A DNA stretch of 64,000 bases from Herpetosiphon aurantiacus DSM 785 (GTDB lineage Bacteria; Chloroflexota; Chloroflexia; Chloroflexales; Herpetosiphonaceae): the NCBI GenBank assembly GCA_000018565.1, contig CP000875.1:505199-569198 (forward strand), written 5' to 3'. The translations under genes were made by a program, and so were the position numbers. Shown here one piece after another: positions 13,756 to 44,723 of this stretch. Within the stretch, counting starts at the first letter, position 1; every line of letters starts with the position of its first letter. The notes under the pieces are model-generated. The model saw only the letters and a list, made by a program, of their open reading frames with translations. It made no database searches and was not told the origin of the DNA.

Positions 13756-13859
13756 TCCCTCACCCCCAGCCCCCCCTCTCCCGTACGCGAGGCGAGGGGG
13801 AACCGCTCCAGCAGTGCTCCCCTCGCCCGCCTCCGTGGGAGAGGGGCTGGGGGTGAGGG
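13756..13859. repeat. G-rich palindromic intergenic element (family copy 1)
   Basis: ccctcacccccagccccc...gcgaggcgagggg / cccctcgcccgcc...gggagaggggctgggggtgaggg. The two halves are reverse complements of each other. Confidence 0.8.
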
Positions 13860-13941
13860 AACGGAAACATGGTTGCCAACCCAATGAACCATTACACCTA
13901 TTGGCTAGCTTTGTACAACCTCTTCCAACGGAGGTACTGGC

Positions 13942-14817
13942 ATGCGTCGTGTTTGGTGGGGTGTGGCTGGTTTAGCTCTCATCGGAATGATCACAGTTTT
14001 GATTTGGTGGCTAGCAAAACCGCTTGAAACAACCTTGGAACGTGCCCAACGCACAGGCATGATCCGGATTGGCTATGCCCCCGAAGCGCCTTTCTCGTAT
14101 CGCGATGCTACTGGCACTGTGGTTGGCGAAGAGGCAGTGGTGATTACTTGGGTGATGCAGCGCCTAGGAGTTTCTCAGCTGGAATGGGTGCAAACCGAAT
14201 GGGCCGATTTAATTCCTGGCTTACAAGCTGGGCGTTTTGACTTGATTGCCAGTGGAATGTTTATTACCTGTGAGCGAGCCGAACTCCTTGCGTTTAGCCA
14301 ACCAACCTTTGCCCTCAGTCCAGCTATGCTCGTCGCTAAAACTAACCCATTGGGCATTCAGAGTTTTGCCGATTTTCAGCGGCCAGATCGGCGTTTGGCG
14401 GTGATGCGTGGTGCACGTGAGGCCGAAATTGCCCAAGCCCTGGGGATTGCGCCAGAACAATTATTATTTGTGCCCGATGTGCAAACAGGCTTGGCGGCAG
14501 TGCTGGCAGGCCGTGCCGATGCCTTAGCCTTGACCGATATCAGCATTGATTTGTTGGTATTACAAGCGCCAGATCAAGTTGAACGAGCCATGCCGTTTGT
14601 GCCACCAATTATTGATGGAAATTTAAGTATTGGCTATGGAGCCTTTGCGATGCGTCATAAGGATGCACATTTGCGCACAGCAATTGATCAACAGTTGATT
14701 GGATTTATTGGCAGTGACGAACATTATGGCTTAATTGCGCCGTTTGGGTTTTCGCGCGAGCAATTGCCCAATCGTTCAACCGCCAGTCTGCTCCAAGGTT
14801 GTGAGAATGGCTCATGA
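13942..14817 (+). CDS. Membrane-anchored periplasmic substrate-binding domain protein (family 3 SBP-like), probably a sensor partner
   Basis: N-terminal TM segment, then an SBP-like domain. ATGA overlap with the downstream histidine kinase. Confidence 0.6.
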   Translation: MRRVWWGVAGLALIGMITVLIWWLAKPLETTLERAQRTGMIRIGYAPEAPFSYRDATGTVVGEEAVVITWVMQRLGVSQLEWVQTEWADLIPGLQAGRFDLIASGMFITCERAELLAFSQPTFALSPAMLVAKTNPLGIQSFADFQRPDRRLAVMRGAREAEIAQALGIAPEQLLFVPDVQTGLAAVLAGRADALALTDISIDLLVLQAPDQVERAMPFVPPIIDGNLSIGYGAFAMRHKDAHLRTAIDQQLIGFIGSDEHYGLIAPFGFSREQLPNRSTASLLQGCENGS

Positions 14818-16955
14818 AGCGTTTTGCTTGGTTGCGGCGCAAAGAATTACGCCCATTAATCGCTTTATTGAGTGTGGCTTTAGTTTCGATTGCCCTGTTG
14901 CAATGGAATTATTACCAAATGCGCTCGATGATTCAATCGCAAATCACGGCGTTTAATGGGATGACTCAAGCCCGTTTGAATATGAAACGTGGCTATTTGA
15001 TTGCTGAGCAGGTATTAAATGGCAACCAAACCCTGCTGCCCCAAGATGCAATTGCCTATCTTGATCAGGCGATTTTGGCGGTTGATGATTGGCAGCAAGG
15101 TAAAAATCCCGTTGTAGTCTTTGATCAATTGTTGCCGCCAGATCCACCAACGCAGCAAGCGCTCACTGACTATCGCCAGCATTTGGTCAGCTTTCGAGCC
15201 TTATTATTGCAACATCTCAATCGCCCACAAGAGCAAGCCCAAACCACGATTGATCGCCGAATTGCCTTCTCAGAGTTGGAATCTGAAGCTGAGCAGTTGG
15301 AAAATCGTTTATACCTTGATTTGGAATTATCAATTAAACGGCAGGCCGAGCGCTATTCGTTGATGTTGGTTGGCTGGCTGATTTTCTTGGTGATTATTGC
15401 GGGAGTTGTCTATCGTTTGTTGGGTTTGCAGCGCTTGGCGGTGGCTCAATTGGCCGCCAGCGAAAAACAATTTCGAGCGCAATATCGTGGCATTCCAATT
15501 CCAACCTATACATGGCGTTGTATTGACGACGATTTTATTCTCGAAGGTTTTAACGATGCAGCGATGATTATTACCCAAGGAGCAATTACCAAATTTGTCA
15601 ATCAATCAGCTAGAATTGTCTATCGCAATGAGCCAGAGATTTTACACCATTTTGAGCGTTGTCAACGTGAAAAAATAACACTTCATCAAGAAATTCGCTA
15701 TGAGTTTAAATTAATCAATCAAGTTAAAGATTTGTATGTGAGCTATGTGTTTATCGAACCAGATTTTATTATGGTGCATACCGAAGATCGAACTGATCGC
15801 AATCAGTTGCAAATGCAATTAATTCGTGCCCAGAAAATGGAAAGTATTGGGCGCTTGGCTGGTGGGGTAGCTCACGATTTCAATAATTTGTTAACTGCAA
15901 TTAGCGGTTATACAACCTTGGCGATTGATAGTGCTCAGCAAGGCTTTCCGGTGGTCGAAGAATTAACTGAAATTCAACATGCCACTGATCGAGCAGCAAT
16001 GCTTACCAGTCAATTATTAACCTTTGCACGTAAGCAGCAAATCCAACCAAAAATTGTCAATATCAACGATTTAATTATGTCGATGGAGAAATTGATTAGA
16101 CGAGTTTTACCAGAATCAATTCAATGGCGAACTGTACTTAATGTTAATATTGATTTAGTTTTGGCTGATATCGGCCAGATTGAGCAAGTATTATTGAATT
16201 TAGTAGTCAATGCGCGTGATGCTATGCCTCAGGGTGGAAATTTGCTGGTTGAAACAAATAATGTTGCAGTTGATGCAAATTATGCACGAACTCATATTGA
16301 TGTACCAATTGGCAATTATGTTTTATTCGCGGTGAGCGATACCGGCATCGGCATGACCCAAGAAGTCCAGAGTCGGGCATTTGAGCCATTTTTTACCACT
16401 AAAAGCGATCACGAAGGTACTGGTTTGGGTTTAGCCACCTGTTATGGCATTATCAAGCAACATGGCGGCCATATTGGTTTGTATAGCGAAGTTAATCATG
16501 GCACGACGATTAAAATTTATTTGCCACGTTCAGAGCAAGCTCAACTCGATGATGCTCCAAGCCTCATCCAAAACTTACCTCGTGGCACGGAAACGATTTT
16601 GGTGAGCGAGGATGAGCCGCAGGTACGGGCGGTTTTGGTGCGGATGCTCCAAGGCTTGGGCTATAGCGTGCTCGAAGCACTGCATGGCTCCGAGGCCTTG
16701 GCCTTGCTCCAAGCCCAGGCGCTTGGCACAATTCAGCTCTTAATTACTGATATGGTTATGCCACAAATGGGTGGTTTTGAGCTGAGCCAACGGGTTGCTG
16801 AGCTTGATCCTCAGCTCAAAATTTTGTTTATTTCGGGCTACTCCGAGCATAGTTTGGCGCAACATCAGCAATTAGCCCAACAGCCTTTGTTGCTGAGCAA
16901 GCCATTTTCACTGGCTACTTTGGCGCAAACAGTCCGCAAGGTGCTGGATGATTAG
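14814..16955 (+). CDS. Hybrid sensor histidine kinase / response regulator
   Basis: TM segments. HisKA H-box AHDFNNLLTAISGY. HATPase N/G boxes (NARDAM, DTGIGM, GTGLGL). C-terminal receiver (LLITDMVMP). Confidence 0.9.
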   Translation: MKRFAWLRRKELRPLIALLSVALVSIALLQWNYYQMRSMIQSQITAFNGMTQARLNMKRGYLIAEQVLNGNQTLLPQDAIAYLDQAILAVDDWQQGKNPVVVFDQLLPPDPPTQQALTDYRQHLVSFRALLLQHLNRPQEQAQTTIDRRIAFSELESEAEQLENRLYLDLELSIKRQAERYSLMLVGWLIFLVIIAGVVYRLLGLQRLAVAQLAASEKQFRAQYRGIPIPTYTWRCIDDDFILEGFNDAAMIITQGAITKFVNQSARIVYRNEPEILHHFERCQREKITLHQEIRYEFKLINQVKDLYVSYVFIEPDFIMVHTEDRTDRNQLQMQLIRAQKMESIGRLAGGVAHDFNNLLTAISGYTTLAIDSAQQGFPVVEELTEIQHATDRAAMLTSQLLTFARKQQIQPKIVNINDLIMSMEKLIRRVLPESIQWRTVLNVNIDLVLADIGQIEQVLLNLVVNARDAMPQGGNLLVETNNVAVDANYARTHIDVPIGNYVLFAVSDTGIGMTQEVQSRAFEPFFTTKSDHEGTGLGLATCYGIIKQHGGHIGLYSEVNHGTTIKIYLPRSEQAQLDDAPSLIQNLPRGTETILVSEDEPQVRAVLVRMLQGLGYSVLEALHGSEALALLQAQALGTIQLLITDMVMPQMGGFELSQRVAELDPQLKILFISGYSEHSLAQHQQLAQQPLLLSKPFSLATLAQTVRKVLDD

Positions 16956-17041
16956 AGCGAATTAAGCCACAGATTGACACAGATGGTTAGGATTTGTTTT
17001 TGCATACTAACGATTCAATAGTTGTACCTACAAGCGGTTTT

Positions 17042-17067
17042 GCCACGAATTGCACGAATTACACGAA
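17042..17067 (-). repeat. TTCGTGNNN x3 tandem 9-mer repeat (minus-strand orientation)
   Basis: cacgaattgcacgaattacacgaa is the reverse complement of ttcgtgtaattcgtgcaattcgtg. Confidence 0.7.
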
Positions 17068-17114
17068 CTAATTTAAGCCTAAAACCCAATAAAATAATCC
17101 ACAAATTGAAATTT

Positions 17115-17176
17115 AGGGGGTGCAGGGGGATGAAAACACCCTGCGTTCCCCGCCTTGAGGCGGGGCGGAGGGGTGG
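17115..17176. repeat. G-rich palindromic element (variant copy 2)
   Basis: gggggtgcaggggga..ccctgcgttccccgccttgaggcggggcggaggggtg. Confidence 0.6.
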
Positions 17177-17344
17177 TGATCACGAATGAATATTAAAAAC
17201 TACTACTGTAAGCTAGAACGGAGGGAGAGTGATCCTCAATCTACGCATAAAACCCCTAAAGACTACATGAAATAAAAGCAGAATTGGCAACTAGCCCAGC
17301 TCAAGGTATGCTTAACCAAAAGCAATTTTAGAGGTAGCTGACCA

Positions 17345-17977
17345 ATGAAAAAATACAAACTAGTGCTGTTTGATTTTGATGGAACCTTGGCCGATTCAAT
17401 TCCTTGGTTGGTCAAGGCGATCAACGGCGTGGCCGAGAAATATAAGTTTCGCCAACTTACGCCCAAGGAATTTACCGAGTTGCGCGGCCAAAACCCCCGC
17501 GAGGTGATGAAATATATGCAGGTGGCTTGGTGGAAAGTGCCATTAATTGCCCGCCATATGCGCCAACTGGCCGCCCAGAATATTCGCCATATTCAGCTTT
17601 TCGATGGCATGGAATTGATTTTGGCTCAATTGGATGCTGCTGATGTGCGTTTGGGCGTGGTCAGCAGTAATAGCGAAGAGAATGTACGCCATGTGTTGGG
17701 TGATGCCTTGGCCAATGTGGTTGAGTTTTACGAATGTAGCGTGCCAATTTTTCGCAAACGTGCCCGTTTTGAGCGAATTGTGCGCAAAGCTAACCTTGAG
17801 CGCGAAAAAATTCTATGCGTTGGCGATGAGATTCGCGATGCTGAGGCGGCCAAGCAAGCTCAATTGGCCTTTGGTGCGGTGGGCTGGGGCATGAGCCGCA
17901 TTCAAGATTTTGCCCCCTATGCGCCGCGCGAAGTGTTTTTTCAGGTTTCCGATATTGCCACCCGCCTGATCGATTGA
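17345..17977 (+). CDS. HAD-superfamily hydrolase (phosphoglycolate phosphatase-like)
   Basis: Motif I LVLFDFDGTLADS. Later GVVSSNS and VGDEIRD motifs. Confidence 0.8.
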   Translation: MKKYKLVLFDFDGTLADSIPWLVKAINGVAEKYKFRQLTPKEFTELRGQNPREVMKYMQVAWWKVPLIARHMRQLAAQNIRHIQLFDGMELILAQLDAADVRLGVVSSNSEENVRHVLGDALANVVEFYECSVPIFRKRARFERIVRKANLEREKILCVGDEIRDAEAAKQAQLAFGAVGWGMSRIQDFAPYAPREVFFQVSDIATRLID

Positions 17978-18075
17978 ATTGCTGATCGAGCAACCAGATT
18001 TTTCGGTTTTTTGGGGGTACAATACATGTGGTTCAGTACTGAACGGTATTGATTGTGTGTTTTGGAGGAAGCTCG

Positions 18076-18927
18076 ATGAGCCTCGGTTCTCTAACATTTC
18101 GGCTTGGTGGTGATCTCGAAATTCGGCGGTTGGGCTTTGGTGCGATGCGCATCACAGGCGATGGAATTTGGGGCGAACCAAGCGATCGCGAACAATCTAA
18201 GGCGGTATTACGCCGCGCTGTCGAACTTGGCGTGAATTTTATTGATACTGCTGATTCATATGGCCCCGATGTCAGCGAATGTTTGATCGGCGAAGCCTTG
18301 CACCCCTACTCAGCTGATATGGTGATTGCAACCAAAGGTGGCTTGCTGCGCGGCGGCCCGAATATTTGGTATTCCAACGGGCGGCCTGAACATTTGCGCA
18401 TTTCGCTGGAAAAAAGCTTGCGCCAATTAAAACTGGAACGGATTGACCTTTACCAATTGCATCGAATTGATGCCCAAGTGCCTTTGGAAGAATCGTTGGG
18501 GGCGCTGAGCGATCTACGCAACGAAGGCAAAATTCGTCATATTGGCCTGAGCGAAGTTAATAACGAACAATTGGCCCAAGCGCAAAAAGTCGTGCCGATT
18601 GTTTCGGTGCAAAATCGTTATAGCATTGGCGACCACGAATGGGAAAGCATGGTCGATGCCTGCGAAGCCCAAAATATCGCTTTTATTCCATGGTTCCCGT
18701 TGGCGGCTGGCCGATTAACTGCGCCTGGTGGCACGCTTGATCAAATTGCCAAAAAATACGAAGCTAGCGTTGGCCAAATTGCCTTGGCATGGTTGCTCAA
18801 ACGCTCGCCAGTGATTTTGCCAATCCCTGGAACATCCAAAGTTAAGCATCTCGAAGAAAATATGGGTGCTGAAAAAATCGCCCTGAGCGACGAAGATTTC
18901 CAAACCCTGCGCGAGTTGCAAGCCTAA
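18076..18927 (+). CDS. Aldo/keto reductase family oxidoreductase
   Basis: IDTADSYG, LGLSEV and the rest of the AKR fold. RBS ggaggaag before the ATG at 18076. Confidence 0.85.
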   Translation: MSLGSLTFRLGGDLEIRRLGFGAMRITGDGIWGEPSDREQSKAVLRRAVELGVNFIDTADSYGPDVSECLIGEALHPYSADMVIATKGGLLRGGPNIWYSNGRPEHLRISLEKSLRQLKLERIDLYQLHRIDAQVPLEESLGALSDLRNEGKIRHIGLSEVNNEQLAQAQKVVPIVSVQNRYSIGDHEWESMVDACEAQNIAFIPWFPLAAGRLTAPGGTLDQIAKKYEASVGQIALAWLLKRSPVILPIPGTSKVKHLEENMGAEKIALSDEDFQTLRELQA

Positions 18928-18930
18928 GTA

Positions 18931-18960
18931 ACATCAAAAGGCAAAAGTCAGAAGTCAAAA
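18931..18960. repeat. AAARKCA heptamer array (aacatca aaaggca aaagtca gaagtca aaag)
   Basis: Same 7-bp unit as the dnaK-dnaJ intergenic arrays. Confidence 0.6.
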
Positions 18961-19021
18961 GATGGAATATGGCTACTGGCTATGGACTATCGGAACATTT
19001 TGTAGAATTGCCTTTTGTCTT

Positions 19022-19128
19022 CCCTCACCTCCTAGCCCGAACGCGAGGCGAGGGGGAACTTTCCCATTATGAAGGAAGGGTGGAACGCCCCTCGCCCACC
19101 GCCGTGGGCGAGAGGTTGGGGGTGAGGG
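19022..19128. repeat. G-rich palindromic element (copy 3)
   Basis: tccctcacctcctagcccgaacgcgaggcgagggggaac ... cccctcgcccaccgccgtgggcgagaggttgggggtgaggg. Confidence 0.8.
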
Positions 19129-19178
19129 AACGAGACCTGTCTGTTAATCTAATTATTCCATATAGCCCATAGCCACAT

Positions 19179-19203
19179 TTCGTGCTCTTCGTGTTCTTCG
19201 TGG
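19179..19203 (+). repeat. TTCGTGNNN x3 tandem 9-mer repeat
   Basis: ttcgtgctcttcgtgttcttcgtgg. Confidence 0.7.
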
Positions 19204-19442
19204 ATCAACGTTAAAAACAAAAAGGGTAGCGAGGCTACCCCAATCAACCACCACATATCACTTCCACACACTAAAATTCACACGTCGCACCCCTCGCTGA
19301 GTATTGTAGCAACTTCCTACGCAACTGCCTAGCACCTAAGTGTAACAATCAGGTAACAATTGGCTGATAAACGCCTGATGTTGCTCTGAGACTTGTTTTT
19401 TTGGCTAAAATAGCGCTATGCAACAGTTTGGAGGTTTGGGCT

Positions 19443-22795: not shown

Positions 22796-22814
22796 ACGTT
22801 ACTCCTGAACTCTT

Positions 22815-22980
22815 GATAAGGATGAAGGATGAATTATGTGAAACCGCAAAGATCGCGAAACTTAGCTCCATGATTGCTTAACGATATTCCAAGCTGCCAA
22901 CGAACCTAACATTCGTGTCCTTCGTGTCCTTCGTGGTTAACAATGATCTTCATCCCTCATCCTTCATAATTCATCCTTTG
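22815..22980. repeat. MITE-like unit: imperfect inverted repeats (aaggatgaaggatgaattatg / cataattcatccttcatcc) flanking about 110 bp that contains a TTCGTG 9-mer triplet (22912..22936)
   Basis: Both arms read from the sequence. The inner triplet is ttcgtgtccttcgtgtccttcgtgg. Confidence 0.55.
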
Positions 22981-23078
22981 GTTTTTCCCCCACATGGTTA
23001 CCCTATCGCGGCCATTGTGGAATGTTAATAACTCTGGTACTGTTTTTAATAACGCTTTTATTTTGGAGATGCTGGCAT

Positions 23079-34197: not shown

Positions 34198-34305
34198 AAG
34201 TATACCATAGCAGTTAATGCGATGCAATAGACTTATTGCAATGATTTTATTAACGTGGCATGGCTGCTGCTTTAGCCTAAATTGCCCAAAATAGTTGAGG
34301 TTGAT

Positions 34306-35307
34306 ATGAATTTTCGTGAATATCGGATTGCTGCGCCGAATGTGCGCTCGTTATGTTGGCATGACCAGAGCTTGGTCGATTGGGTAGCTGGTGGCACGCG
34401 CTATCAGTTGGATGGCCCGATTAAACGTTCATCAACGGTCTATCCGTTTGGCTTTGATGCGGCGGTGCAATCGGCTTCAGGTGAGGTCGTGGTAATTTAT
34501 CAGCGCTTAGGAACCAAGGGTTTAGTGCTTAACAATGGCCAAATTGTGCGCGAAATTAACCGCAGCTACTACTACGCCGACAGCTATGAGTATCCCATCG
34601 CGATTCTTCAACATGCCGATTTGAATGAAGTATTGGTGCATTGCCCCGAAAAATACAATCAACTTGAGCTTGAAGATGTTGTCACAAATCGACGACTGAA
34701 TGAAGCCGAACGCAAGCCAGTCGAGATTTTTCATTCGCGATTAAGTGTTAGCCCCAAAGGCAAATGGTTGGTGAGCGCTGGTTGGCAGTGGCAACCGACC
34801 CATACCGTGGCAATTTACAACGTTGATGAGATCTGGGCACAACCGCAAATCCTCGATACTGAAGGTTTTTGTCCGTCAATTCAAGTCGATATTAGCTCGG
34901 TCAGCTTTTTAGATGAACAAACCCTGCTGATTATCACCGATGAATTTGCTAACCTGAGTGCCGATTTGGTTGATACGCTGGTACAACGACGCGGCGCACA
35001 TAGCATCGGCTACTACGATCTGCTCAATCGCCAATTTCGCGCCACCGTCGAGGCCGAGGAGATTGTGGGCACAGCTATGGCGCTGAGCGAACGCTATGTG
35101 GTTGGTTTTTACGATCATCCAAAATTGTTCGATTGTACCACGGGCAAGGTTGTGCAGCGCTGGCCCGATTTAGCCACAGGCCGTCAAACCCATAGCATGA
35201 TCGGCAGGCTTGATCAATCCATCCCGCCAATCGCCTTTGATCAAGCTAACCAACGTTTTGCGGTGGCCGATGCCAAGGGCATTACGGTGATTGAATTGAG
35301 TTTATAG
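34306..35307 (+). CDS. Hypothetical protein, paralog 1 of a tandem pair
   Basis: Shares long conserved blocks with 35422..36429 (REYRI, VRSLCW, AAVQS.SG..VIYQRLGT, FYDHPKLFDCTTGK, IAFDQANQRFAVADAKGITVIEL). Confidence 0.7.
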   Translation: MNFREYRIAAPNVRSLCWHDQSLVDWVAGGTRYQLDGPIKRSSTVYPFGFDAAVQSASGEVVVIYQRLGTKGLVLNNGQIVREINRSYYYADSYEYPIAILQHADLNEVLVHCPEKYNQLELEDVVTNRRLNEAERKPVEIFHSRLSVSPKGKWLVSAGWQWQPTHTVAIYNVDEIWAQPQILDTEGFCPSIQVDISSVSFLDEQTLLIITDEFANLSADLVDTLVQRRGAHSIGYYDLLNRQFRATVEAEEIVGTAMALSERYVVGFYDHPKLFDCTTGKVVQRWPDLATGRQTHSMIGRLDQSIPPIAFDQANQRFAVADAKGITVIELSL

Positions 35308-35421
35308 GGCTAATAACAGCAGTTCTCGCCCTCAGTTAACTACATTCTCCATCAATCGATGGTTAATACAAGGAGATTCTTCTTATACTATAGTGGGCAA
35401 CGAGATTATTGAGGGTTAGTA

Positions 35422-36429
35422 ATGCACTATCGAGAATATCGAATTTCAGCGGTTGGTGTGCGTTCGCTTTGTTGGGACAAACAGAAACTGATTGATTGGG
35501 TGACTGGAACAATCTATCAACTTAATGGAACTGCTGACCGATTTCATCGTGGCTATGGTCAAACATTTGACGCGGCGGTGCAATCGACATCTGGTGATTT
35601 AGCAGTTATTTACCAGCGCCTTGGCACAGCGGGAATGCTGATTGATCGGCATAAGCCACTACGAACGTTAACGCGTGATAAATACCATGCTACTATTTAT
35701 GAATATCCCGTTGGGTTTCTTCACGATGCTCAAGGGCGTGAATTGTTGATCCATTGCCCTGAACGTTATCTCAAACTTGAAATTGAAGAGGCCCGCACCG
35801 GGCGTTCAGCAGCCTCGTTGAATAAAACCCTCATTGAGCGCTTAAGGTTATGGTTTGCCGAAACGGATGATCGTAATCCGATGGATATATTTCACTCGCG
35901 CTTAATCCAAAGCCCTGGTGGTCGGTGGTTGTTGAATGCTGGTTGGATTTGGCATCCGTATGATACCTTCGTGCTGTATGAAGTAGCCGATGTATTAGCC
36001 GATCCCCGTATGCTTGATTCGAATCACTTTGAATTTGCCTATCCAATAGTTGCTGAGATTAGTGCCGCAGCGTTTCTTGATGATCAAACCTTAATCCTTG
36101 TTAACAGCGAATATCCGGAAGATGATGAAGAATCTCCTAAGTATCACGAAGATCCGCTGTTCCATAGTGGCCCTTATAGCATTGGTAGCTACGATCTGAT
36201 TAATCGTCGCTATCGTTCGGTTGTCAAAGCTGAGGAAATTGTTGGCACCATGATGCCATTAAGCGAGCGCTATTTAATTGGTTTTTACAAGCACCCAAAA
36301 TTATTCGATTGTACGACTGGTAAGATTATTCAGCGCTGGCCACAGCTTAATACAGGCACGCAAACCAGTAGTTTATTAATGAAGCCAGAGTTGATTCCCC
36401 CACCGTTTGCCTTTGATCAAGCTAACTAA
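35422..36429 (+). CDS. Hypothetical protein, paralog 2. An in-frame TAA at 36427..36429 truncates it relative to paralog 1; the remaining tail (RFAVADAKGITVIELSD) is still readable downstream.
   Basis: FAFDQAN then TAA, then cgttttgcggtggccgatgccaaggggattacggtgattgag, which matches the paralog 1 C-terminus. Confidence 0.7.
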   Translation: MHYREYRISAVGVRSLCWDKQKLIDWVTGTIYQLNGTADRFHRGYGQTFDAAVQSTSGDLAVIYQRLGTAGMLIDRHKPLRTLTRDKYHATIYEYPVGFLHDAQGRELLIHCPERYLKLEIEEARTGRSAASLNKTLIERLRLWFAETDDRNPMDIFHSRLIQSPGGRWLLNAGWIWHPYDTFVLYEVADVLADPRMLDSNHFEFAYPIVAEISAAAFLDDQTLILVNSEYPEDDEESPKYHEDPLFHSGPYSIGSYDLINRRYRSVVKAEEIVGTMMPLSERYLIGFYKHPKLFDCTTGKIIQRWPQLNTGTQTSSLLMKPELIPPPFAFDQAN

Positions 36430-36518
36430 CGTTTTGCGGTGGCCGATGCCAAGGGGATTACGGTGATTGAGCTTAGCGATCAATTGTGAGTGGTACAATA
36501 GCCGCTGCTGATGTGTGA

Positions 36519-37400
36519 TTGGGGTTGGCAATGCGGCGACAAAAACCATTGGATTGGGCAACACTTGGGCCAATTGCGGTGCTGTTGGGCTTGTTATTGT
36601 TGATTGTGAATCAGCTTAATCAACCCAAAAATCAGTATGCTCCGTTGAGTGCCTATTTTAATGATGCTGCGGCGAGTGTGCCGCAAAGCCAACTTACCCC
36701 CTTGCCGCCCACAACGTTACAAGCGATTGAGCAAAGCAACGCCGCTGGCAGCTCCAACCAAATCGATTTGGTACTCGAAGCTGAGCTGTATCAAGACCAA
36801 AGTAACGAGTTAGCCAGCGAATTGCAAATTGCCCTCGATTATGTTCAAGAACGTACCAATATCCGTTTGGCCGAACGGGTTACGGTGGTGATCAGCCAAG
36901 ATGCCCAATGTGGCTTCCATGGCGTAACCTACTCCGATGTGCGAGTGATTTATATCTATAGTTGTGCTGGGGTGGCACGCAGCCGTGTGGTGAATATTGC
37001 TGCTCATGAATTTGTCCATCAATTAGAGCAGGATCGCTATGGCGCTGCCCATTTGAGCACCGACTTGGTGCTTTCTGAGGGTTTTGCAACTTGGGGCGCT
37101 GGCCGTTATTGGCTGGGCAGTGCCAGCGATTTTACGAGCTTTGCCCGCGATTATCAGGCCAACGGGCAAGCCTTACCCTTGGCAACCCACTATGCTGGCG
37201 TTGGCATCGATGGTATGAACGTGCTCTATTATCAATGGGCGAGTTTTGTCGATTATTTGATTAATAACTATGGCCGTGAAGCCTTCGATCAATTGTATAT
37301 TTCGGGTGGCGAACGTCAACCTGGCGCAGCCAATTACGCAGCAATCTACAATCGCTCGTTTGGTTTGCTTGAGGCTGAATGGCGGCAAACGCTGGATTAG
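36519..37400 (+). CDS. Membrane-anchored hypothetical protein with an HExxH motif (putative metallopeptidase-like)
   Basis: N-terminal TM segment. AAHEFVHQLE motif. Confidence 0.5.
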   Translation: MGLAMRRQKPLDWATLGPIAVLLGLLLLIVNQLNQPKNQYAPLSAYFNDAAASVPQSQLTPLPPTTLQAIEQSNAAGSSNQIDLVLEAELYQDQSNELASELQIALDYVQERTNIRLAERVTVVISQDAQCGFHGVTYSDVRVIYIYSCAGVARSRVVNIAAHEFVHQLEQDRYGAAHLSTDLVLSEGFATWGAGRYWLGSASDFTSFARDYQANGQALPLATHYAGVGIDGMNVLYYQWASFVDYLINNYGREAFDQLYISGGERQPGAANYAAIYNRSFGLLEAEWRQTLD

Positions 37401-37442
37401 GCCGTGCTACAATGGCCCAAGCAATTGTGCAAAGGAGAGTCT

Positions 37443-38342: not shown

Positions 38343-38478
38343 TCACGATCAGGAGCTTGGGGAATTGACCTCAAGCTCTTTTTTCGCAACAATCCAGCTC
38401 TAACCCACGTATGTTTTGCAAGATTTTTAATCCCCATTGGCCGTTTCCTGCGATGTTCTTTTTGAGAAAGGGTCTGCT

Positions 38479-39903
38479 ATGTTTGGAGTTCTGCGTGGGT
38501 GCTCGCCGCACCTCGATCAACCGACCCATGCCGCGTGGTGGAGCCACATTTGTGGTATGTGCCTAACCTTGCGCGACCAGCATGGCCAAGTTGCTCGCAT
38601 TACCACCAATTACGATGCTGCTTTGCTTTCGGCGTTGTACGAAGCTCAACGCGCTGAGCAAGGCTCCCGCCGCACGAGTGTTTGCGCGTTACGTGGTTTT
38701 CGGGCGCTCGATGTGGTCGCTGCTGATAATCATGGTTCACGCTATGCTGCCGCCGTAAGTTTGCTGATGGCCGCAATTCGGCTGCGCGATAATGTGGCCG
38801 ATCGCGATGGTTGGGCTGGTAAAGTGCCCTTGGTTGCTAACACGGTTGCTAAACGTTGGGATAAAAAAGCTGAGCAAACCGCCCGTGAGTTGGGCTTCGA
38901 GCCAGCTTTATTGCGCCAACAAGCCGTCGCTCAGGCTGAAGTCGAGGCCTTGGTCAATGCCGATTTTTGCACCTATTCGGCTCCGACTGAAGCTGCGGTG
39001 GGTGCGGCGTTTCGGCATACGGCGATTTTGGCCAACCAACCGAGCAATGCCGAGCCACTTGAGCAAATGGGCCGTATGTATGGCCGCATGATGTTGCTGC
39101 TCGATAGCTACAACGATGTGGCTGAAGATCAAGCCCGTGGCCATTTCAATGCCTTGTGTGCCACGCCCCAAGCCGAATTGCGCACGGTTGCCCATAAAAT
39201 CTTCAACGATGCTTTTGCCAATTTGCGCCAACAATGGCAACGTTTGAGCTTGCTGCAAGCACATTTGGTTGAAGTGTTGTTGCTGAATATGTTGCCAGCA
39301 ATTGGCTCGAAAGCCTTTGGCGCATGCAAACGCCATAGTTTGGCTTGTGCCACGGTCTTGCCAGTTGCGGCGGCTTTATTACCAGCCATGGCCAGCGATT
39401 ACGATGACGATCCTTCACGGCGCGACCCCAACCGCGCTTATACTGGGCCAACCCGCGCCCTCAAGCCCCACGAAAACCCTGAATATCAAGGTCAATATCC
39501 ACAACAGCCGCCCTATCAAGGCCAATATCCGCAACAACCATATCAAGGCTATCCACCACAATCCAATCCAAATGATCCCTCGATGTTGCCGCCTGGCTCG
39601 TTGCCGCCAGCTAGTTCACACCCGGTTCCGCCGCCAGGCCATTATCAAGATCGTAAGCGCGATGTAGCGATGGGCGCAGCCTTATGCTGTTGTCAGAGTC
39701 GTAGCCGTCGTCACCACCACTCGCATCGTTCACGTATCGTGTGTTGTGACGATGATTGCTGCGATTGTTGCCAATGCACCTGCTGCTGTTGCGATGCCAC
39801 CGATGCCTGCGAAGGCGATGGTTGTAGTTGCTGCGAATGTGGGGGCTGTGGTGAATGTGGCAGTTGCTGCGAATGTGGCGATTGCTGTAGCTGTGATTGT
39901 TAA
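38479..39903 (+). CDS. Hypothetical protein with a Pro/Gln/Tyr-rich repeat region and an extremely Cys-rich C-terminal tail (metallothionein-like)
   Basis: YQGQYPQQPPYQGQYPQQPYQGYPPQ, then CCCQSRSRRHHHSHRSRIVCCDDDCCDCCQCTCCCCDATDACEGDGCSCCECGGCGECGSCCECGDCCSCDC. Confidence 0.7.
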   Translation: MFGVLRGCSPHLDQPTHAAWWSHICGMCLTLRDQHGQVARITTNYDAALLSALYEAQRAEQGSRRTSVCALRGFRALDVVAADNHGSRYAAAVSLLMAAIRLRDNVADRDGWAGKVPLVANTVAKRWDKKAEQTARELGFEPALLRQQAVAQAEVEALVNADFCTYSAPTEAAVGAAFRHTAILANQPSNAEPLEQMGRMYGRMMLLLDSYNDVAEDQARGHFNALCATPQAELRTVAHKIFNDAFANLRQQWQRLSLLQAHLVEVLLLNMLPAIGSKAFGACKRHSLACATVLPVAAALLPAMASDYDDDPSRRDPNRAYTGPTRALKPHENPEYQGQYPQQPPYQGQYPQQPYQGYPPQSNPNDPSMLPPGSLPPASSHPVPPPGHYQDRKRDVAMGAALCCCQSRSRRHHHSHRSRIVCCDDDCCDCCQCTCCCCDATDACEGDGCSCCECGGCGECGSCCECGDCCSCDC

Positions 39904-39965
39904 CATAAGCAACCCCGCCAAGCAGCCTAGTCGCTTGGCGGGGTTGCATTGTTTATCTGTAGTTT

Positions 39966-40412
39966 TTAGGCGCGGGCAGTGATTTGGCGGCCAGTCAAGC
40001 GTGGGCTGAGCAAGTTGTCAAGCGCCAATGAGCCTGAGCCAAGCAGCACCAAAGCCACGCTAGCAGCGATCAACGCCAACACATATTCGTAGCCACCTTC
40101 GCGTGATGAGAAGCCAGCATCCAAGTGCACGGTAACCAAAGCCACAACCATAGCGATTGCTTCAGCCACTGCAACATAACGAGTAAACAAGCCGAGCATC
40201 AACATAATCCCGCCGATCAATTCCGTTGCAATCAACAAAATTGCCATAAAGGTTGGCGCTGGAATTCCAAGGCTAGTCAAGAAGCCAGCGGTTCCCTCAA
40301 TCCCGCCATTGAATTTATCCAAACCGTGCATAAAGAAAATAAAACCAACGACAATCCGCAAAATGGCGATGCCAAAACCTGGCTTATCGAGTAATTTATT
40401 GATGCTTGCCAT
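39966..40412 (-). CDS. DoxX family membrane protein
   Basis: About 148 aa with 4 TM helices. The LRIVVGFIFFMHGLDKF region is typical of DoxX. RBS aggag. Confidence 0.75.
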   Translation of the reverse strand: MASINKLLDKPGFGIAILRIVVGFIFFMHGLDKFNGGIEGTAGFLTSLGIPAPTFMAILLIATELIGGIMLMLGLFTRYVAVAEAIAMVVALVTVHLDAGFSSREGGYEYVLALIAASVALVLLGSGSLALDNLLSPRLTGRQITARA

Positions 40413-40620
40413 GACCGTTTGCTCCTTTCAAGCAGTGGTTGATTAGACTGCGCTCACTATAAAGCTAGATAGTCCGAAACAACGTCCTTGCTCACGTCCC
40501 AAAGGTCAATAAAAGATTAATAAACGATGAAGTAGCGATGAAGATTGGGCAAAATGGTTAATTTTTTGCAGGTTAAATGCTAGTTTGAGCAGCTAAAATT
40601 CGCACGGCTTTAAATCAAAG

Positions 40621-40701
40621 CCCCTCGCCTGCCGCAGCGGGAGAGGGGTTGGGGTGAGGGGGCGTTAAAACCTACTCTTGCGAGAGGGGTTGGGGTGAGG
40701 G
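40621..40701. repeat. G-rich element, two right-half units (copy 4)
   Basis: cccctcgcctgccgcagcgggagaggggttggggtgaggg ... gagaggggttggggtgaggg. Confidence 0.75.
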
Positions 40702-40712
40702 CATTTCATTAT

Positions 40713-43043
40713 TTATTTGGCGGTTGCACTTTGGCGTTTGACGGCAACCTCAGTTTTGCGATGCTGCAAGTGCTCGGCAATCACATAAGAGCCAATCACA
40801 AATGCGCCAGCTGCAACTTGGGCCGCAATGCCTTCCCACGTCGCATAGAAACCCAGCCACATATTGGCCCAGTAGGGGATTTCGAGGCTACGAATTGGGT
40901 GCAGCGGCATCCAGCCAACCAACTGCATAATGTGCATGGTGTTGCCAACCATAATCAACAAGACCGCGCCAATCATCACCCCAGTCACGATCAGCATCTT
41001 CTTATGGGGCAATTTGGCTTGCAGTCCAAAGACCAGCACACCAACCAAGGCTGTGCCACCAAGCCCCATAGCCACGCCGGCTAACACCACTTGGGTGCTG
41101 GCTTCAAGCACGAGCGCTTGCAAAAAGAGCACAGTTTCAACGCCTTCACGGTAGATGCTGGTAAAGCCCAAGGTGATCAAACCGAGCCAAAGCCCAGCCT
41201 TGCCACCAATAATTCGGCGCTTTTGGGCATGAAAATTGGCCATCCAGCCAGTCCAGTAGACTTTGTGGAAAAACCAGTTGGTGATTAACAACAGCACGGC
41301 GATGGCAATTAATGAAACAATCGCTTCGATCTTTTCTTGATCGCCACGCCGAATCAGTTCGGTGATCAAGCCCCGCGCCAGCACCCACGTCAATACCGTT
41401 GCTAACATGGCGAGGGTTGCACCGATCCAAATTGGTTTGCGATAGCCACGTTGTTCGCCAATTTTGAGGCTTGCCAACAACGAAGCCAAAATTAACACCG
41501 CCTCTAAGCCTTCGCGAAACACAATCACGGCGGCGCTAGTTGCTACCGCTTCGGGCGTGCTAGAGCCGCCAAGCGCATCTTGGGCTAAATCCAATTGTTT
41601 ATCCAAGGCTTGGCGGCTAGCGCGAATATCGCTGAGCGAAGCTTTTTGGCGAATCAACTCAGCTAGGCCAGTAAATTCATCTTTGCCATACCAAAACAGG
41701 TTTTCAATTGGCGCTTTATATTCAGGAGCAAACACAATCAAACGCGCTTCTGGGCCAGATTCCAACACAGCGTAGGCTTCCAAACGGGCCGATTCGGCGA
41801 GATCATATTGGTCGCCAGCCACCGCATTTTCCATCTGATCAAGCATTGAAGCGATTACATCGAAATCGCCTTCGAGGCTGGATTTCTGCCACTCGGCGGG
41901 CATAATTTCGGCCAAGGTTGTGGTGATATGATCGACTTTGGCTTGAACCGCATCTGGCTCGGCCACACTCGTCCGTTGAGCTGCAGCGGTCAGCATCGTT
42001 TCCAGCTCGCGTAGATCGCTGGCGACTTGTTGAGTTTTGGTCGAATCAATTGCGATCAAAAGGCTTTCGAGGTCGCTAAAGGCAGCGGCTGCGCCATTGC
42101 GAAAGGTCGTTGCTTCTTGAATTTCGAGATCCAGCGTAACTTGGCCGTTGCGCACGCCTCGTTCATATTCTACTGGCACTAAGCTTAAGAAACGGCGCAT
42201 CTGGCCAGCGCGGCGTACTTGCTCCGATGGGCTAAGGGGAGCCGCCCGAAAACCGCTCAGCGAGCCTTCAAAGCTGCCGATTGCCGCTTCAAGCTGGTTG
42301 TTGCTGAGTGCTGCTTGACGTAAGTTTTCAGCATTAACCAAAGCTGCATCGACCTTCTCAGGGTGCTGGCTACGATAGGCTGGCTCTAAAATAGCAAAAT
42401 AGCCTTGAATCGCCGCACCAGCCTCAGCTTGTTGAATTAAATTGCCTTTTTGGGCAGCGCTGCGTAGAGTGCGCAAACTCTCGTTAAGCTTGGCCTGATA
42501 GGTATCCAACAAATCGGCATCAAGGGCAGTTCGCGCATCGGCGGCGCTGTAGGCTGCTTGTTTCCATTGCTCGATTGCCCGAGCAGCATCGCCGTTGGGG
42601 CGCGAAAAACGGGTGGCATTGCGAAATTCGCGAACGGGCAGCCATTGCAGTGCTTGCTCAGGTTTGCCAGTATCGATCGCTTGACCAACAATTCCATAAC
42701 TGGCCTTGAGCAAATGCGTCCAGAGCAAAGCCCGTTGTTGGGCAAATCCGGCCACATCTTGTTTTTCCAAGGCTTGGGCTAAATCGGTCCAACGTGTGGC
42801 GATTTCCGCTGCTTGTTGGGGCGCTAAATTGGTCAAATCTTTAGCCAAGGCCTGATCGTACAAGGCTTGGGCTTGGTTAAGCAGGCTTTGGGCTTGAGCA
42901 GGATCATTGGTGAGAATTAATTGGGCTTGCACCAGCAGCGAACGCACCGATTCGCTGGCTTGGGCTGGTGATGGTTCGGCTGCCATGGCCGACCATGGCA
43001 ATAAAGAGACGACCAACGCCAGCAAAAAACGACGCAACCACAT
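40713..43043 (-). CDS. FTR1-family high-affinity iron permease fused to a roughly 480-aa N-terminal periplasmic helical domain
   Basis: Signal peptide MWLRRFLLALVVSLLPWSAMAA. Two REGxE motifs (FREGLEAVL, YREGVETVL) in the C-terminal 7-TM region. RBS taggag. Confidence 0.8.
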   Translation of the reverse strand: MWLRRFLLALVVSLLPWSAMAAEPSPAQASESVRSLLVQAQLILTNDPAQAQSLLNQAQALYDQALAKDLTNLAPQQAAEIATRWTDLAQALEKQDVAGFAQQRALLWTHLLKASYGIVGQAIDTGKPEQALQWLPVREFRNATRFSRPNGDAARAIEQWKQAAYSAADARTALDADLLDTYQAKLNESLRTLRSAAQKGNLIQQAEAGAAIQGYFAILEPAYRSQHPEKVDAALVNAENLRQAALSNNQLEAAIGSFEGSLSGFRAAPLSPSEQVRRAGQMRRFLSLVPVEYERGVRNGQVTLDLEIQEATTFRNGAAAAFSDLESLLIAIDSTKTQQVASDLRELETMLTAAAQRTSVAEPDAVQAKVDHITTTLAEIMPAEWQKSSLEGDFDVIASMLDQMENAVAGDQYDLAESARLEAYAVLESGPEARLIVFAPEYKAPIENLFWYGKDEFTGLAELIRQKASLSDIRASRQALDKQLDLAQDALGGSSTPEAVATSAAVIVFREGLEAVLILASLLASLKIGEQRGYRKPIWIGATLAMLATVLTWVLARGLITELIRRGDQEKIEAIVSLIAIAVLLLITNWFFHKVYWTGWMANFHAQKRRIIGGKAGLWLGLITLGFTSIYREGVETVLFLQALVLEASTQVVLAGVAMGLGGTALVGVLVFGLQAKLPHKKMLIVTGVMIGAVLLIMVGNTMHIMQLVGWMPLHPIRSLEIPYWANMWLGFYATWEGIAAQVAAGAFVIGSYVIAEHLQHRKTEVAVKRQSATAK

Positions 43044-43313
43044 ACAAGCTCCTAAAAATGTGATTTGCTGCTGCTCACGTTGGGCAACAGCATAGTAAAC
43101 CGACAAAGGACGTGACCTGCATGCCAACAGTTCACGCCCTTTGCTCCTTAAGTTGCTTGATGGAGGGACGCACACCCAGCTCCATCAACCTTGCTCTGTC
43201 GCAACTTCTTGCTCATTGATAGCATAGATATACCTGTGGTGTAGCCAGCATATCTATTGTACGAGGATTTGTTAATCCGTTCGCGAACCTATTTTATACT
43301 GAGAATAAGCAGC

Positions 43314-44390
43314 TTATTCGCTGATTTTAATATTCAAACGAGCAGCAATTTGGCTGACTTGACCTGTAATTGCATCAGCACGATTTTGGGCTTCAGCACC
43401 AAGCAAATCGGATTCTTCAGCCGTAAAGTGTTGGCCAGCTTGTTCTTTTTTATAGACATCGGCCACAAAATCGCGTAATGCTTGCAAATTGGTTTTGATT
43501 TGGCGATCTTGGTCGGCATCGAGCGCGGCAACTTTAGGGCTGAGGCTATCGTACACCACCTGCAAACTGCCCAAAATATCGCCAATATCGGCCAATCGTG
43601 AGATAGCCACAAAATCGCGTTGGGTGCTGCTATCGCCAGCCACAAAGCGTGAGTTCTTCCATGAATCGAAATATTCGTTCATGGTTGGCACCATCACGAC
43701 CAAGGCGCTAAATGCATCGGTGTCGGTTGGTTCCCAAGCCTTGGCAGCGGTATCAAGCTCGGTTGCAGTGGCTTTGAGCTTTTGGGCAGCGGCCAACAGC
43801 ACATTGGCTTCGGGCAACGATTCGCCAAATTCTACCGTGCCGTTGCCATTGATATCAGCTTCAACATCGGTAACGCGGAAGGCATCGTAAGTGCCCCAGA
43901 GCGTGCTTTCGGTTACGCCAAACAAATTACCAGGTTTGGCAATCGTGCGGCCATCAGCTAACGTCAAATCATAATTGACCACGCTATCGCCGCCTTCTTC
44001 TGCCGAAGCACCAGCATCAAGCGTCACATCGAAATCGGCCAAACTGCTTACGCCTGCAACGATCCCTTCCATTTGCTCGTAGGTAGGGCTGGATTTCAAC
44101 CAAGCGGCTTTGGCATCGTTTAATGCAGTGCCAACCTCGGCTTGTTTGCTACTCCAGAGGGTCGCATAATCAAAATTGGCAGCTTTCGCCAAATCATAAT
44201 AACGCTGACTTGCGGTCTCCAAAGCGGTGCTGCTATTGATCAAATCGCCAGTTTTGCCCAAAAGATAGGTCTTGATTGCCCCAAGTTCGCCAGCAGCAGG
44301 TGCTTGGGTCGGTTGAGTGGTAGGAGCAGTTTCAGCGCCACAGCCAGCGAGAACTGCCACAAGGGTTAATGCACAAAGCCAACGATACAT
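43314..44390 (-). CDS. Lipoprotein partner of the FTR1 permease (possibly EfeO/imelysin-like)
   Basis: Lipobox LAGC. All-helical Ala/Asp/Glu-rich protein. Same operon as the FTR1 gene. Confidence 0.5.
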   Translation of the reverse strand: MYRWLCALTLVAVLAGCGAETAPTTQPTQAPAAGELGAIKTYLLGKTGDLINSSTALETASQRYYDLAKAANFDYATLWSSKQAEVGTALNDAKAAWLKSSPTYEQMEGIVAGVSSLADFDVTLDAGASAEEGGDSVVNYDLTLADGRTIAKPGNLFGVTESTLWGTYDAFRVTDVEADINGNGTVEFGESLPEANVLLAAAQKLKATATELDTAAKAWEPTDTDAFSALVVMVPTMNEYFDSWKNSRFVAGDSSTQRDFVAISRLADIGDILGSLQVVYDSLSPKVAALDADQDRQIKTNLQALRDFVADVYKKEQAGQHFTAEESDLLGAEAQNRADAITGQVSQIAARLNIKISE

Positions 44391-44501
44391 GAGCCAGAAA
44401 CCTCCAAATGCCAAAGCTTGTAGTTAAATCGGTTAATACTGAAAAAACAGTTTTTATTGCGATTGGCAGAGTATACGTCGCGCTAATACTTCTGTCAAAC
44501 G

Positions 44502-44512
44502 AGAATGATTCT
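44502..44512. promoter_or_regulatory. Fur-box-like palindrome AGAATGATTCT upstream of the iron-uptake operon
   Basis: Perfect 5-1-5 palindrome resembling the GATAATGATAATCATTATC core. About 110 nt upstream of the lipoprotein start. Confidence 0.3.
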
Positions 44513-44621
44513 TAGATTTAGCTGATTAAATGGGGTTAAATACGCTTCAAGCTATCGGCTAGACAATGGTACAATTTGTGATAATACAGCGCTGTTAACA
44601 ATAGTATAGATGCCCTCACCC

Positions 44622-44723
44622 CCTAGCCCCCTAGCCCGCCGAGCGAGCGAGGGGGAACCACTAAGTGAAACGCCCCTCGCCCGCCGCAGTGGGAGAGGGG
44701 TTGGGGTGAGGGCAGGCACTACA
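44622..44723. repeat. G-rich palindromic element (copy 5)
   Basis: gccctcaccccctagccccctagcccgccgagcgagcgagggggaac ... cccctcgcccgccgcagtgggagaggggttggggtgaggg. Confidence 0.8.

Follow-up and report, generated by a model that had tools for sequence, protein, structure and literature searches.

A 64,000-nucleotide stretch of the Herpetosiphon aurantiacus DSM 785 genome (contig CP000875.1, positions 505,199 to 569,198; hereafter the window) carries a family of short, G-rich palindromic repeats, which we call family 1. It occupies four sites in the window (13.7k, 19.0k, 40.6k and 44.6k, or sites A, C, D and E), with seven units and one partial unit in total. The copies are held together by a common block architecture, lie between genes, recur at unrelated loci and differ in presence between species, with one case of nested insertion and several partial deletions. 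We consider these elements to be, probably, a non-coding, structure-prone and gain- and loss-prone repeat of REPIN-like build.

A repeat family at four intergenic sites

On its G-rich strand, the unit of about 40 nt consists of a C block (CCCCTCGCCC), a loop of 7-9 nt, a first G block (G1, GGGAGAGGGG), the dinucleotide TT and a second G block (G2, GGGGTGAGGG). Among the copies, the C block reads CCCCTCGCC(C/T), the second loop TT or CT, and G2 GGGG(G)TGAGGG. The C block pairs with G1 at nine of ten positions and leaves one conserved G.A mismatch, which some copies restore to a pair via GGGCGAGGGG. G2 mirrors G1, and all ten mirror positions would, as read from the sequence, be allowed purine-motif triads (G·G, A·A and T·A). 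Since the similarity between copies ends directly after the G-tails, we set the boundary of the element at this point.

Two subtypes could be distinguished. The alpha subtype has the 5′ flank TTAAAGC, the C block CCCTCGCCC, a first loop of 7-8 nt, the second loop TT and the G2 block GGGGTGAGGGGA. The beta subtype has the flank GGyGCTCC, the same C block (CCCTCGCCC), the first loop GCGTTCAGT, the second loop GTTG and the G2 block GGGGGTGAGGGRA; G1 is GGGAGAGGGG in both. Most Herpetosiphon units are joined in inverted doublets of a beta unit in reverse complement, a spacer and an alpha unit, with the G-tails pointing outward. In H. giganteus and strain NSE202 the spacer is about 45 nt long and shows partial conservation; it is shorter, 14-28 nt, in the three doublets of the window.

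Several searches recovered the family. The G-block GGGAGAGGGGTTGGGGTGAGGG was found three times in the window, exactly or with at most one mismatch, against an expectation of 0.00, and none of the family patterns was matched in 100 shuffles. A repeat finder reported the 44-nt unit as a four-copy direct-repeat family (D4) and grouped the four sites as D4, D9 and D14, while an inverted-repeat search returned the 21-nt outer arms of the 13.7k copy (I5). Pairwise local alignments among the four sites scored 38-55, compared to 12 +/- 2 for shuffled sequences, thus more than 10 standard deviations higher, and none of 200 shuffles equalled them. Furthermore, we trained a profile hidden Markov model (HMM) on 21 units found at unrelated loci in several Herpetosiphon-lineage assemblies, in which both subtypes and the doublet spacer are conserved. 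When the 64 kb were scanned with this model, its matches were confined to the four family sites (Table 1). All four sites are intergenic, that is, outside the open reading frames (ORFs) of genes. Extrapolated from the window, the genome would be expected to carry several hundred units.

The first-pass annotation of this DNA had listed five copies. Four of them were borne out by the alignments and the HMM, and the copies align with each other far beyond chance, on which the claim of a family depended; the fifth, at 17115-17176, belongs to a separate family that is described below. Its coordinates were correct for 13756-13859, 19022-19128 and 40621-40701, whereas the last site, given as 44622-44723, is shifted by about 10 nt. 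It had rightly placed all copies between genes. Its description of units arranged head to head into long hairpins applies to 13.7k, 19.0k and 44.6k, but not to 40.6k, where one unit is accompanied by a direct partial repeat. The Pro/Gly-rich ORFs that it had considered spurious (13702..13884 on the minus strand and 18969..19172 on the plus strand) do exist and overlap other frames within the repeats, so they are indeed spurious.

Table 1. Coordinates of the family 1 sites, of the HMM matches and of family 2
Feature	Coordinates	Strand	Description
13.7k (site A)	13757-13859		inverted doublet, G-tails outward
13.7k left arm	13757-13803	-	
13.7k right arm	13819-13859	+	CCCCTCGCCC-GCCTCCGT-GGGAGAGGGG-CT-GGGGGTGAGGG
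13.7k doublet with shell	13719-13899		181 bp; doublet inside an unrelated outer palindromic shell, GTTTGTAATGGTTTAT.../...ATGAACCATTACACCT
13.7k HMM matches	13817-13862; 13756-13803	+; -	
19.0k (site C)	19022-19128		inverted doublet, more decayed
19.0k left arm	19022-19059	-	G-blocks partly lost
19.0k right arm	19088-19128	+	CCCCTCGCCC-ACCGCCGT-GGGCGAGAGG-TT-GGGGGTGAGGG; decayed copy
19.0k HMM matches	19083-19130; 19020-19059	+; -	E = 4e-11; weak, E = 0.04
40.6k (site D)	40621-40701		unit and direct partial copy
40.6k single unit	40621-40662	+	alpha-type; CCCCTCGCCT-GCCGCAGC-GGGAGAGGGG-TT-GGGGTGAGGGGG
40.6k direct partial copy	40680-40701	+	G1-G2 blocks only (GCGAGAGGGGTTGGGGTGAGGG); ends about 10 nt from the FTR1 stop codon
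40.6k HMM matches	40615-40661; 40682-40703	+; +	second match partial, E = 0.005
44.6k (site E)	44613-44712		inverted doublet between divergent genes, imelysin (-) and CNNM (+)
44.6k left arm	44613-44658	-	beta-like, decayed
44.6k right arm	44673-44712	+	alpha-type
44.6k HMM matches	44669-44713; 44611-44658	+; -	
Family 2 element	17112-17183	+	GGGGG-TGCA-GGGGG-loop-CCCTGC plus CCCCGCC-TTGA-GGCGGGG-CGGA-GGGGTGG
Family 2, L196	8142-8815		H. geysericola
Family 2, L197	~7310-7660		Chloroflexia metagenome-assembled genome
Family 2, L207	~4610-4690		

The fold predictions that the first-pass annotation had proposed gave long hairpins with strongly negative z-scores for the three doublets. As RNA, the 13.7k doublet had a predicted energy of -86 to -96 kcal/mol (z = -7.2 and -8.3), followed by the 44.6k doublet (z = -6.5 and -6.3) and the 19.0k doublet (z = -4.2 and -3.6); no long hairpin was predicted for the 40.6k site (z = -2.1 and -0.8). 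As DNA, the doublets were predicted to fold with -30 to -46 kcal/mol, the 13.7k copy with -45.9 kcal/mol. The G-strand GGG-AGA-GGGG-TT-GGGG-TGA-GGG fits, as a prediction, the canonical definition of a G-quadruplex (G4), with G4Hunter scores of 2.36-2.39 (2.36 for GGGAGAGGGGTTGGGGTGAGGG), and ViennaRNA with its G4 option still favoured the hairpin. When the isolated unit 44673-44712 was folded as RNA with ViennaRNA, the C block paired with G2, through a G.U wobble, and not with G1, through the G.A mismatch. This unit may thus have two alternative hairpins at its disposal, besides the triplex and G4 options.

Presence, absence and decay at orthologous sites

Orthologous loci were retrieved via the flanking proteins. 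In this comparison, which was made without matched control regions, orthologous sites were empty, filled or rearranged at all four positions. At site A, a relative with a neighbouring histidine kinase of 95% identity (L198) reads AAAGCCT followed directly by ATTGGCTAGC and is empty where the window has the 181 bp of doublet and shell. The site is also empty in H. geysericola (L196) and in a Chloroflexia metagenome-assembled genome (MAG; L197). In a 92% relative (L199), a palindromic remnant of 71 nt is located at this position, a diverged shell (ATGGAATGGTTTATGCG/CGCATAATGATTCCAT) with traces only of the doublet. The halves of the shell in the window (13719-13756 and 13860-13899) lie outside the family and may represent a further palindromic element of small size or a palindrome that was lengthened through copying.

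Partial deletion was seen at the same site. In a metagenome contig of the same species (L001, 2590-3004), the left arm is shorter by exactly 30 nt (TCCCGTACGCGAGGCGAGGGGGAACCGCTC), corresponding to window positions 13774-13803, and the deletion is bounded by CTC microhomology. The gap reflects either true variation within the population or a palindrome that collapsed during assembly. No strain polymorphism was observed at the 40.6k and 44.6k sites, where four metagenome contigs of the same species were identical apart from contig breaks inside the elements. Such breaks, of the kind that dispersed repeats cause, recur in short-read assemblies.

The other three sites were variable between species as well. 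At site C, H. geysericola has no element, and the MAG carries a doublet elsewhere in the same intergenic region. At site D, just past the end of the FTR1-family coding sequence, the orthologous regions of five species contain different combinations of units, and H. geysericola has none. Site E is empty in four Herpetosiphon species, which share a conserved small hairpin (CAGCACAGG-N18-CCTTGTGCTG) at this place, and holds a doublet in H. aurantiacus and in H. gulosus. The doublet of H. gulosus carries a family 2 element at its centre. The insertion point coincides with the loop of the hairpin of the empty allele at sites A and E, and the nested family 2 insertion likewise lies in a loop. These three cases are no more than suggestive of a gain targeted to loops. 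Among the roles that the first-pass annotation had proposed, that of recombination sites, read as sites of recombination or instability, is the best supported.

Family 2 itself is located at the 17.1k site. The segment 17115-17176 was rejected as a family 1 member, since 81 of 500 shuffles aligned as well and the HMM was silent there. The element (Table 1) contains ...CCACCCTTCCGTCCCTCC-GCC-GGAGGGAAACGCCGGGGG-TTTTCAT-CCCCCAGCACCCCC... and comprises two hairpins, each with a mirrored third (G) block. We found relatives in H. geysericola (L196, three copies), in the MAG (L197, two copies) and in L207. All Herpetosiphon relatives that were fetched carry family 2 between the histidine kinase and HAD genes, as the window does, some of them in the opposite orientation, and H. 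geysericola has three tandem copies of about 225 bp there. Compensatory changes were observed in its hairpin (CCCCGCC/GGCGGGG versus TCCCTCC/GGAGGGA), and these are not tracked by the third block.

Relatives of the elements and their possible origin

PIT elements were reportedly described by Hoyne and Maher in 2000. The BoxC or TM elements have been known since the 1990s, and to our knowledge their function and mode of spread are still unexplained. BoxC is one of the known stem-loop families of Escherichia coli (PMC2267715); TM_ECO (Holder et al. 2015, PMC4666352) and the Maher laboratory's PIT elements are the same as BoxC. Holder et al. defined TM_ECO strictly as CCCTCNCCC-N3-6-GGGNGAGGG-N3-GGGNGAGGG and counted 23 elements in K-12; across 262 proteobacterial genomes the number was 3610. 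The elements are always intergenic, without strand bias and without association with transposons, phages or plasmids; at five places in K-12, two subtypes form an inverted pair. TM_ECO oligonucleotides form a very stable intrastrand triplex in vitro, as judged by circular dichroism and nuclear magnetic resonance (NMR), and the NMR data indicate a triplex and not a G4. The triplex was undetected in vivo, with no protection in dimethyl sulfate footprinting of E. coli. Flanks of TM_ECO vary more than controls, palindromic sites undergo partial deletions, and structure-promoted slippage deletion was proposed as the cause (PMC4666352). Moreover, 100 copies of CCCTCTCCCXX(X)GGGAGAGGG, which correspond to the hairpin part, were reported for Enterobacter sp. 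638, and the authors presumed a terminator role for them (PMC2869309). We found no published description of the elements in Herpetosiphon.

Judged by sequence, the window elements are likely to be Herpetosiphon members of the BoxC/PIT/TM class, in a lineage-specific form and not as TM_ECO in the strict sense. The three blocks of BoxC were found with at most one mismatch at 13819-13859, 40621-40660 and 44673-44712, and in decayed form at 19088-19128. Once the loop lengths were relaxed, the TM pattern gave two to three matches (13820-13859, 19089-19128 and 44674-44712), compared to none in shuffles. The order of the blocks (C, loop, G1, loop, mirrored G2) is the same, and so, nearly, are the blocks, with the 23 TM_ECO sequences reading CCCTC(G/T)CCC, GGGAGAGGG and GGGTGAGGG. 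Both groups frequently have a G.A mismatch between the C block and G1 (the 'mm' types of E. coli), are strictly intergenic and multicopy, form some inverted pairs of two subtypes, have no visible link to mobile-element genes, for Herpetosiphon among the 40 window ORFs scanned, and show unstable neighbouring sequence with partial deletions at palindromic sites. The second loop is TT, CT or GTTG in Herpetosiphon, in contrast to TTA or CCG in E. coli, and the host belongs to the Chloroflexota, whereas the published catalogue covers proteobacterial genomes. The triplex was demonstrated for the E. coli oligonucleotides and may also form in the Herpetosiphon variant, for which hairpin energies were computed.

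We also searched for the exact G-block in other genomes. The pattern allowed both variants of Y and an optional extra base, and forced A in G1 and T in G2, which biases the counts. Among one-genome-per-species contigs, the 22/23-mer was present in at least 120 stretches from about 12 phyla among the matches listed; groups were assigned by record titles, and all counts are lower bounds. Chloroflexota contributed 32 of the listed stretches, Planctomycetota 17, Cyanobacteria 12, Armatimonadota 5, Acidobacteriota 4 and Nitrospirota 2. The Proteobacteria were represented by Gammaproteobacteria (20 of Xanthomonadales type and 8 others), Betaproteobacteria (8), Alphaproteobacteria (5) and unassigned records (2), and five further groups had one stretch each. 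Additionally, 69 IMG/VR contigs that are classed as viral, and may be phage sequences or host flanks of prophage calls, harboured the exact G-block, in nearly all of them preceded by CCCCTC[T/G]CCC and a short loop, and generally without a U-tract. In some of these contigs, for example L043, L057 and L071 with a conserved GTGACTCGCCGGGCGGCT prefix, the G-block lies inside larger, contig-specific repeats. A doublet pattern specific for the subfamily matched 52 stretches in JGI metagenomes with a G+C content of 0.42-0.73. None of these fits the organism of the window, with its 50% G+C, and many are tails-outward doublets in other taxa, high-GC ones included.

Taken together, the REPIN-like repeat outlined at the beginning would behave as follows. 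A single strand of the unit would form a hairpin, onto which the third block may fold back as an intrastrand purine-motif triplex, by analogy with the E. coli oligonucleotides, and a doublet could extrude a hairpin of about 100 nt or a cruciform. The elements would be selfish or neutral structure-prone DNA that encodes nothing and is gained and lost in intergenic regions, with gain preferentially near gene ends, in loops of hairpins or palindromes already present there. They may spread through a trans-acting enzyme of RAYT/HUH-like type with specificity for hairpins in single-stranded DNA, or through template switching in replication or repair, as at stalled forks. Later decay could then result from slippage-type partial deletions promoted by the hairpin, triplex or G4, as proposed for the E. 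coli elements. Copies would be tolerated mainly near gene ends, and an occasional copy may double as the 3′ hairpin of a transcript. This is plausible only for the 40.6k unit, where a terminator role would be incidental.

Several observations weigh against this explanation and against the BoxC assignment. The strict TM_ECO pattern had no match in the window: the first loop has 7-9 nt instead of 3-6, and the stems have 10 nt instead of 9 with a second loop of 2-3 nt or, when counted as 9-nt stems, of 4-5 nt. Inverted pairs of two subtypes are present, but with the opposite geometry, the G-tails of the doublet pointing outward in Herpetosiphon and inward in E. coli. A Pfam scan of 40 window ORFs detected no transposase, Y1/HUH protein (RAYT) or integrase, and no direct repeats that could represent a target-site duplication flank the three doublets. 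Mobility is inferred from only a handful of orthologous sequence comparisons, in each of which the 'empty' site could also have arisen through precise deletion. The history of site A must be composite, because the inserted segment carries palindromic flanks that do not belong to the family. Finally, near-identity of a 22-mer over more than 10 phyla is hard to square with purely neutral junk and hints at a sequence-specific constraint or a partner that the explanation does not name.

The first-pass annotation had compared the copies to REP/BIME or to miniature inverted-repeat transposable elements (MITEs). As a broad class, that of short interspersed intergenic palindromic repeats, this comparison stands, while the specific features of REP and MITE were not found; the precise counterpart, BoxC/PIT/TM, was not mentioned there. 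REP and REPIN sequences have a 5′ tetranucleotide of GTAG type, are specific to a lineage and are accompanied by a cognate Y1 (RAYT) gene that is typically flanked by the repeats. Family 1 resembles them as short imperfect intergenic palindromes, often near gene 3′ ends, with hairpin-forming inverted doublets, high copy number, and gain and loss between relatives. A classical REPIN-RAYT or MITE system, with doublets mobilised by a Y1 (RAYT) or insertion sequence (IS) transposase encoded elsewhere, would account for the inverted doublets with short spacer and long hairpin seen at the three doublet sites of the window. It would also account for the conserved stem mismatch, the presence and absence between species, the nested insertion and insertion points in hairpin loops, which are single-stranded targets. 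However, neither Y1_Tnp nor another transposase is among the 40 window ORFs scanned, and the 5′ flanks read AAAGC or GCTCC with no GTAG-like tetranucleotide. Moreover, the sequence is common to many phyla, whereas REPs are lineage-specific, and it has a third, mirrored block that REPs do not have. We regard such a system as unlikely.

The MITE variant of this alternative meets similar difficulties. A length of about 100-180 bp, inverted ends and insertion polymorphism between close relatives are MITE-like. In contrast, no consistent target-site duplication is visible, with at most an ambiguous 'CCT' at the site A junctions (AAAGCCT/G... and ...ACACCT/ATTGG), and the ends are unlike those of any IS; no IS was seen in the window. 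The 'inverted ends' are the two units themselves, which also occur singly and as a partial copy. The lack of an association with transposons, phages or plasmids reported by Holder et al. (PMC4666352) points in the same direction.

A selected DNA signal is another alternative that has to be considered. Here the triplex, H-DNA or G4 motif would be bound or acted upon by a host factor of wide conservation (for instance a nucleoid protein, a helicase, a topoisomerase or a repair enzyme), or would be a local promoter of mutation or recombination. The occurrence of the exact 22/23-mer across phyla and IMG/VR contigs, the same G.A mismatch in E. coli and Herpetosiphon, the G4Hunter scores and the in vitro triplex of the E. 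coli form all agree with such a signal, and a hairpin together with a mirrored G-block is found in the unrelated family 2 as well. Nevertheless, the E. coli triplex escaped detection in vivo (PMC4666352), the third block of family 2 does not follow the compensatory changes of the hairpin, and copies are freely lost or decayed between close relatives, which argues against selection site by site. No candidate factor is known. As regards the G4, the G-strand is predicted to fit the definition of four G3+ runs separated by N1-7, but a complementary C block always precedes it and would compete for G1 or G2, and for the E. coli form NMR points to a triplex and not to a G4 (PMC4666352). We consider a selected signal rather improbable.

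The third alternative is a function at the RNA level, in which the hairpin would act as an intrinsic terminator or protective 3′ stem-loop and be retained for this reason. The role as terminator or mRNA stabiliser proposed in the first-pass annotation fits at most the 40.6k unit. This unit follows the FTR1-family gene on the minus strand (stop codon at 40713), the repeat starting about 10 nt beyond the stop codon, and in the sense of the FTR1 mRNA the GC-rich hairpin is followed by CUUUGAUUU; a T-rich tail (CTTTGATTT) was found at this unit only. A related hairpin with T-run is present in the same intergenic region of H. llansteffanensis, H. giganteus and NSE202, alpha units of several species have CTTTAA..GTGGTT next on the C-strand, and the authors of the Enterobacter study presumed termination (PMC2869309). 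On the other hand, a terminator consensus scan called none of the elements. Upstream of the 13.7k doublet there is a canonical terminator that is distinct from it (13546-13579), and the next start codon follows the doublet after 83 nt; the 44.6k doublet is located between divergent genes. Rfam gave no match at the gathering threshold, and in E-value mode only miRNA-precursor matches far below threshold, as expected for a generic long hairpin. E. coli PIT elements had neither promoter nor terminator activity in earlier tests, as far as these are cited in PMC4666352.

Orientation was surveyed, with crude gene calls, on 76 single units of many taxa that lie clearly between genes. Our home-made ORF caller had placed 127 of 254 units 'inside' ORFs, which are shadow ORFs in high-GC DNA and ORFs made by the repeat. 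As rough counts, co-directional contexts had 25 units in G-sense and 25 in C-sense, and 19 units lay between convergent genes compared to 7 between divergent genes; units were nearer to the 3′ end of the upstream gene, again as a rough result. The 3′-end bias and the surplus between convergent genes would suit an RNA function, but tolerated insertions would also give a 3′-end bias, and the equal orientations, together with the general lack of a U-tract, do not resemble intrinsic terminators. We hold an RNA function to be quite improbable. Chance clustering of low-complexity G/C-rich DNA without a true repeat family, as the G-runs of the blocks and the 17.1k copy listed through compositional resemblance alone might suggest, is already refuted by the shuffle counts, alignment scores and HMM results, and by subtypes and spacers kept across species.

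Neighbouring repeats and implications

The window is a housekeeping stretch that includes hrcA-grpE-dnaK-dnaJ, nusA-infB-rbfA-truB and transketolase, and the imelysin protein is 100% identical to ABX03120.1 (ATCC 23779). Tandem repeats of 7-9 nt adjoin some of the family 1 sites, in agreement with the short repeats mentioned in the first-pass annotation. Intergenic arrays of this kind are found at 11535-11581, 11608-11661, 18934-18961, 17044-17067, 19179-19202 and 22912-22935, with the units AAAATCA/AAAGTCA, TGACTTT, TCAAAAG, CACGAATTA, TTCGTGCTC and TTCGTGTCC. Two arrays in the dnaK-dnaJ gap are opposed to each other as a 45-nt inverted repeat (I1-I4). The arrays resemble the STRR heptamer repeats of heterocystous cyanobacteria, and relatives carry other heptamers at the same places. 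From these heptamers a cyanobacterial origin had been considered, with the Nostoc SDR and Nezha MITE families in mind; it was rejected as HIP1 (GCGATCGC) is not enriched in the window (2 versus 1.65 expected) and the proteins are those of H. aurantiacus.

Other repeats were observed in the window. A segment of about 130 nt is duplicated with about 80% identity at 1519-1650 and 4400-4540 (D3) and begins with a terminator-like hairpin (AAAAGCCAGACCCCAGCTTGG...CCAAACTGGGGT); since the second copy overlaps the 3′ end of an M4 peptidase gene on the minus strand, the first may be a gene-end fragment. At 34282-37400, three adjacent paralogous ORFs of 341, 335 and 293 aa without a Pfam match have stretches of 71-92% DNA identity that recur every 1.1-1.2 kb or so (D2, D8 and D13). 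Tandem repeats were also seen in coding regions: the N-terminal part of IF2 has Gly-rich arrays of GGN/GGNR (49055-49377), a zf_Tbcl protein gene a perfect 21-nt repeat with 2.5 copies (13317-13369), and a DUF5685 gene an 18-nt Cys-rich repeat at its end (39826-39887).

For annotation, our results mean that the family 1 elements should be masked as repeats and not be called as genes or small RNAs, as they are sources of spurious Pro/Gly-rich ORFs and of assembly breaks. What is new is a well-defined branch in Herpetosiphon, within the Chloroflexota, with two subtypes and a REPIN-like doublet with its tails outward. In addition, we obtained direct evidence that the exact G-block is common to about 12 phyla among the matches listed. 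The filled, empty and nested orthologous sites suggest that the elements land in existing hairpin loops and are eroded afterwards.

A more far-reaching idea, which at present we think unlikely to be right, is that the module of about 40 nt is among the smallest and most widespread mobile or actively maintained DNA modules of bacteria. Its G-block, near-invariant from E. coli to Chloroflexota, Planctomycetota and Cyanobacteria, would then be inserted into the loops of single-stranded DNA hairpins by a widely conserved enzyme or be recognised by a host factor that is likewise widely conserved. If this is true, the filled, empty and nested sites of Herpetosiphon would be a tractable system for finding the machinery.

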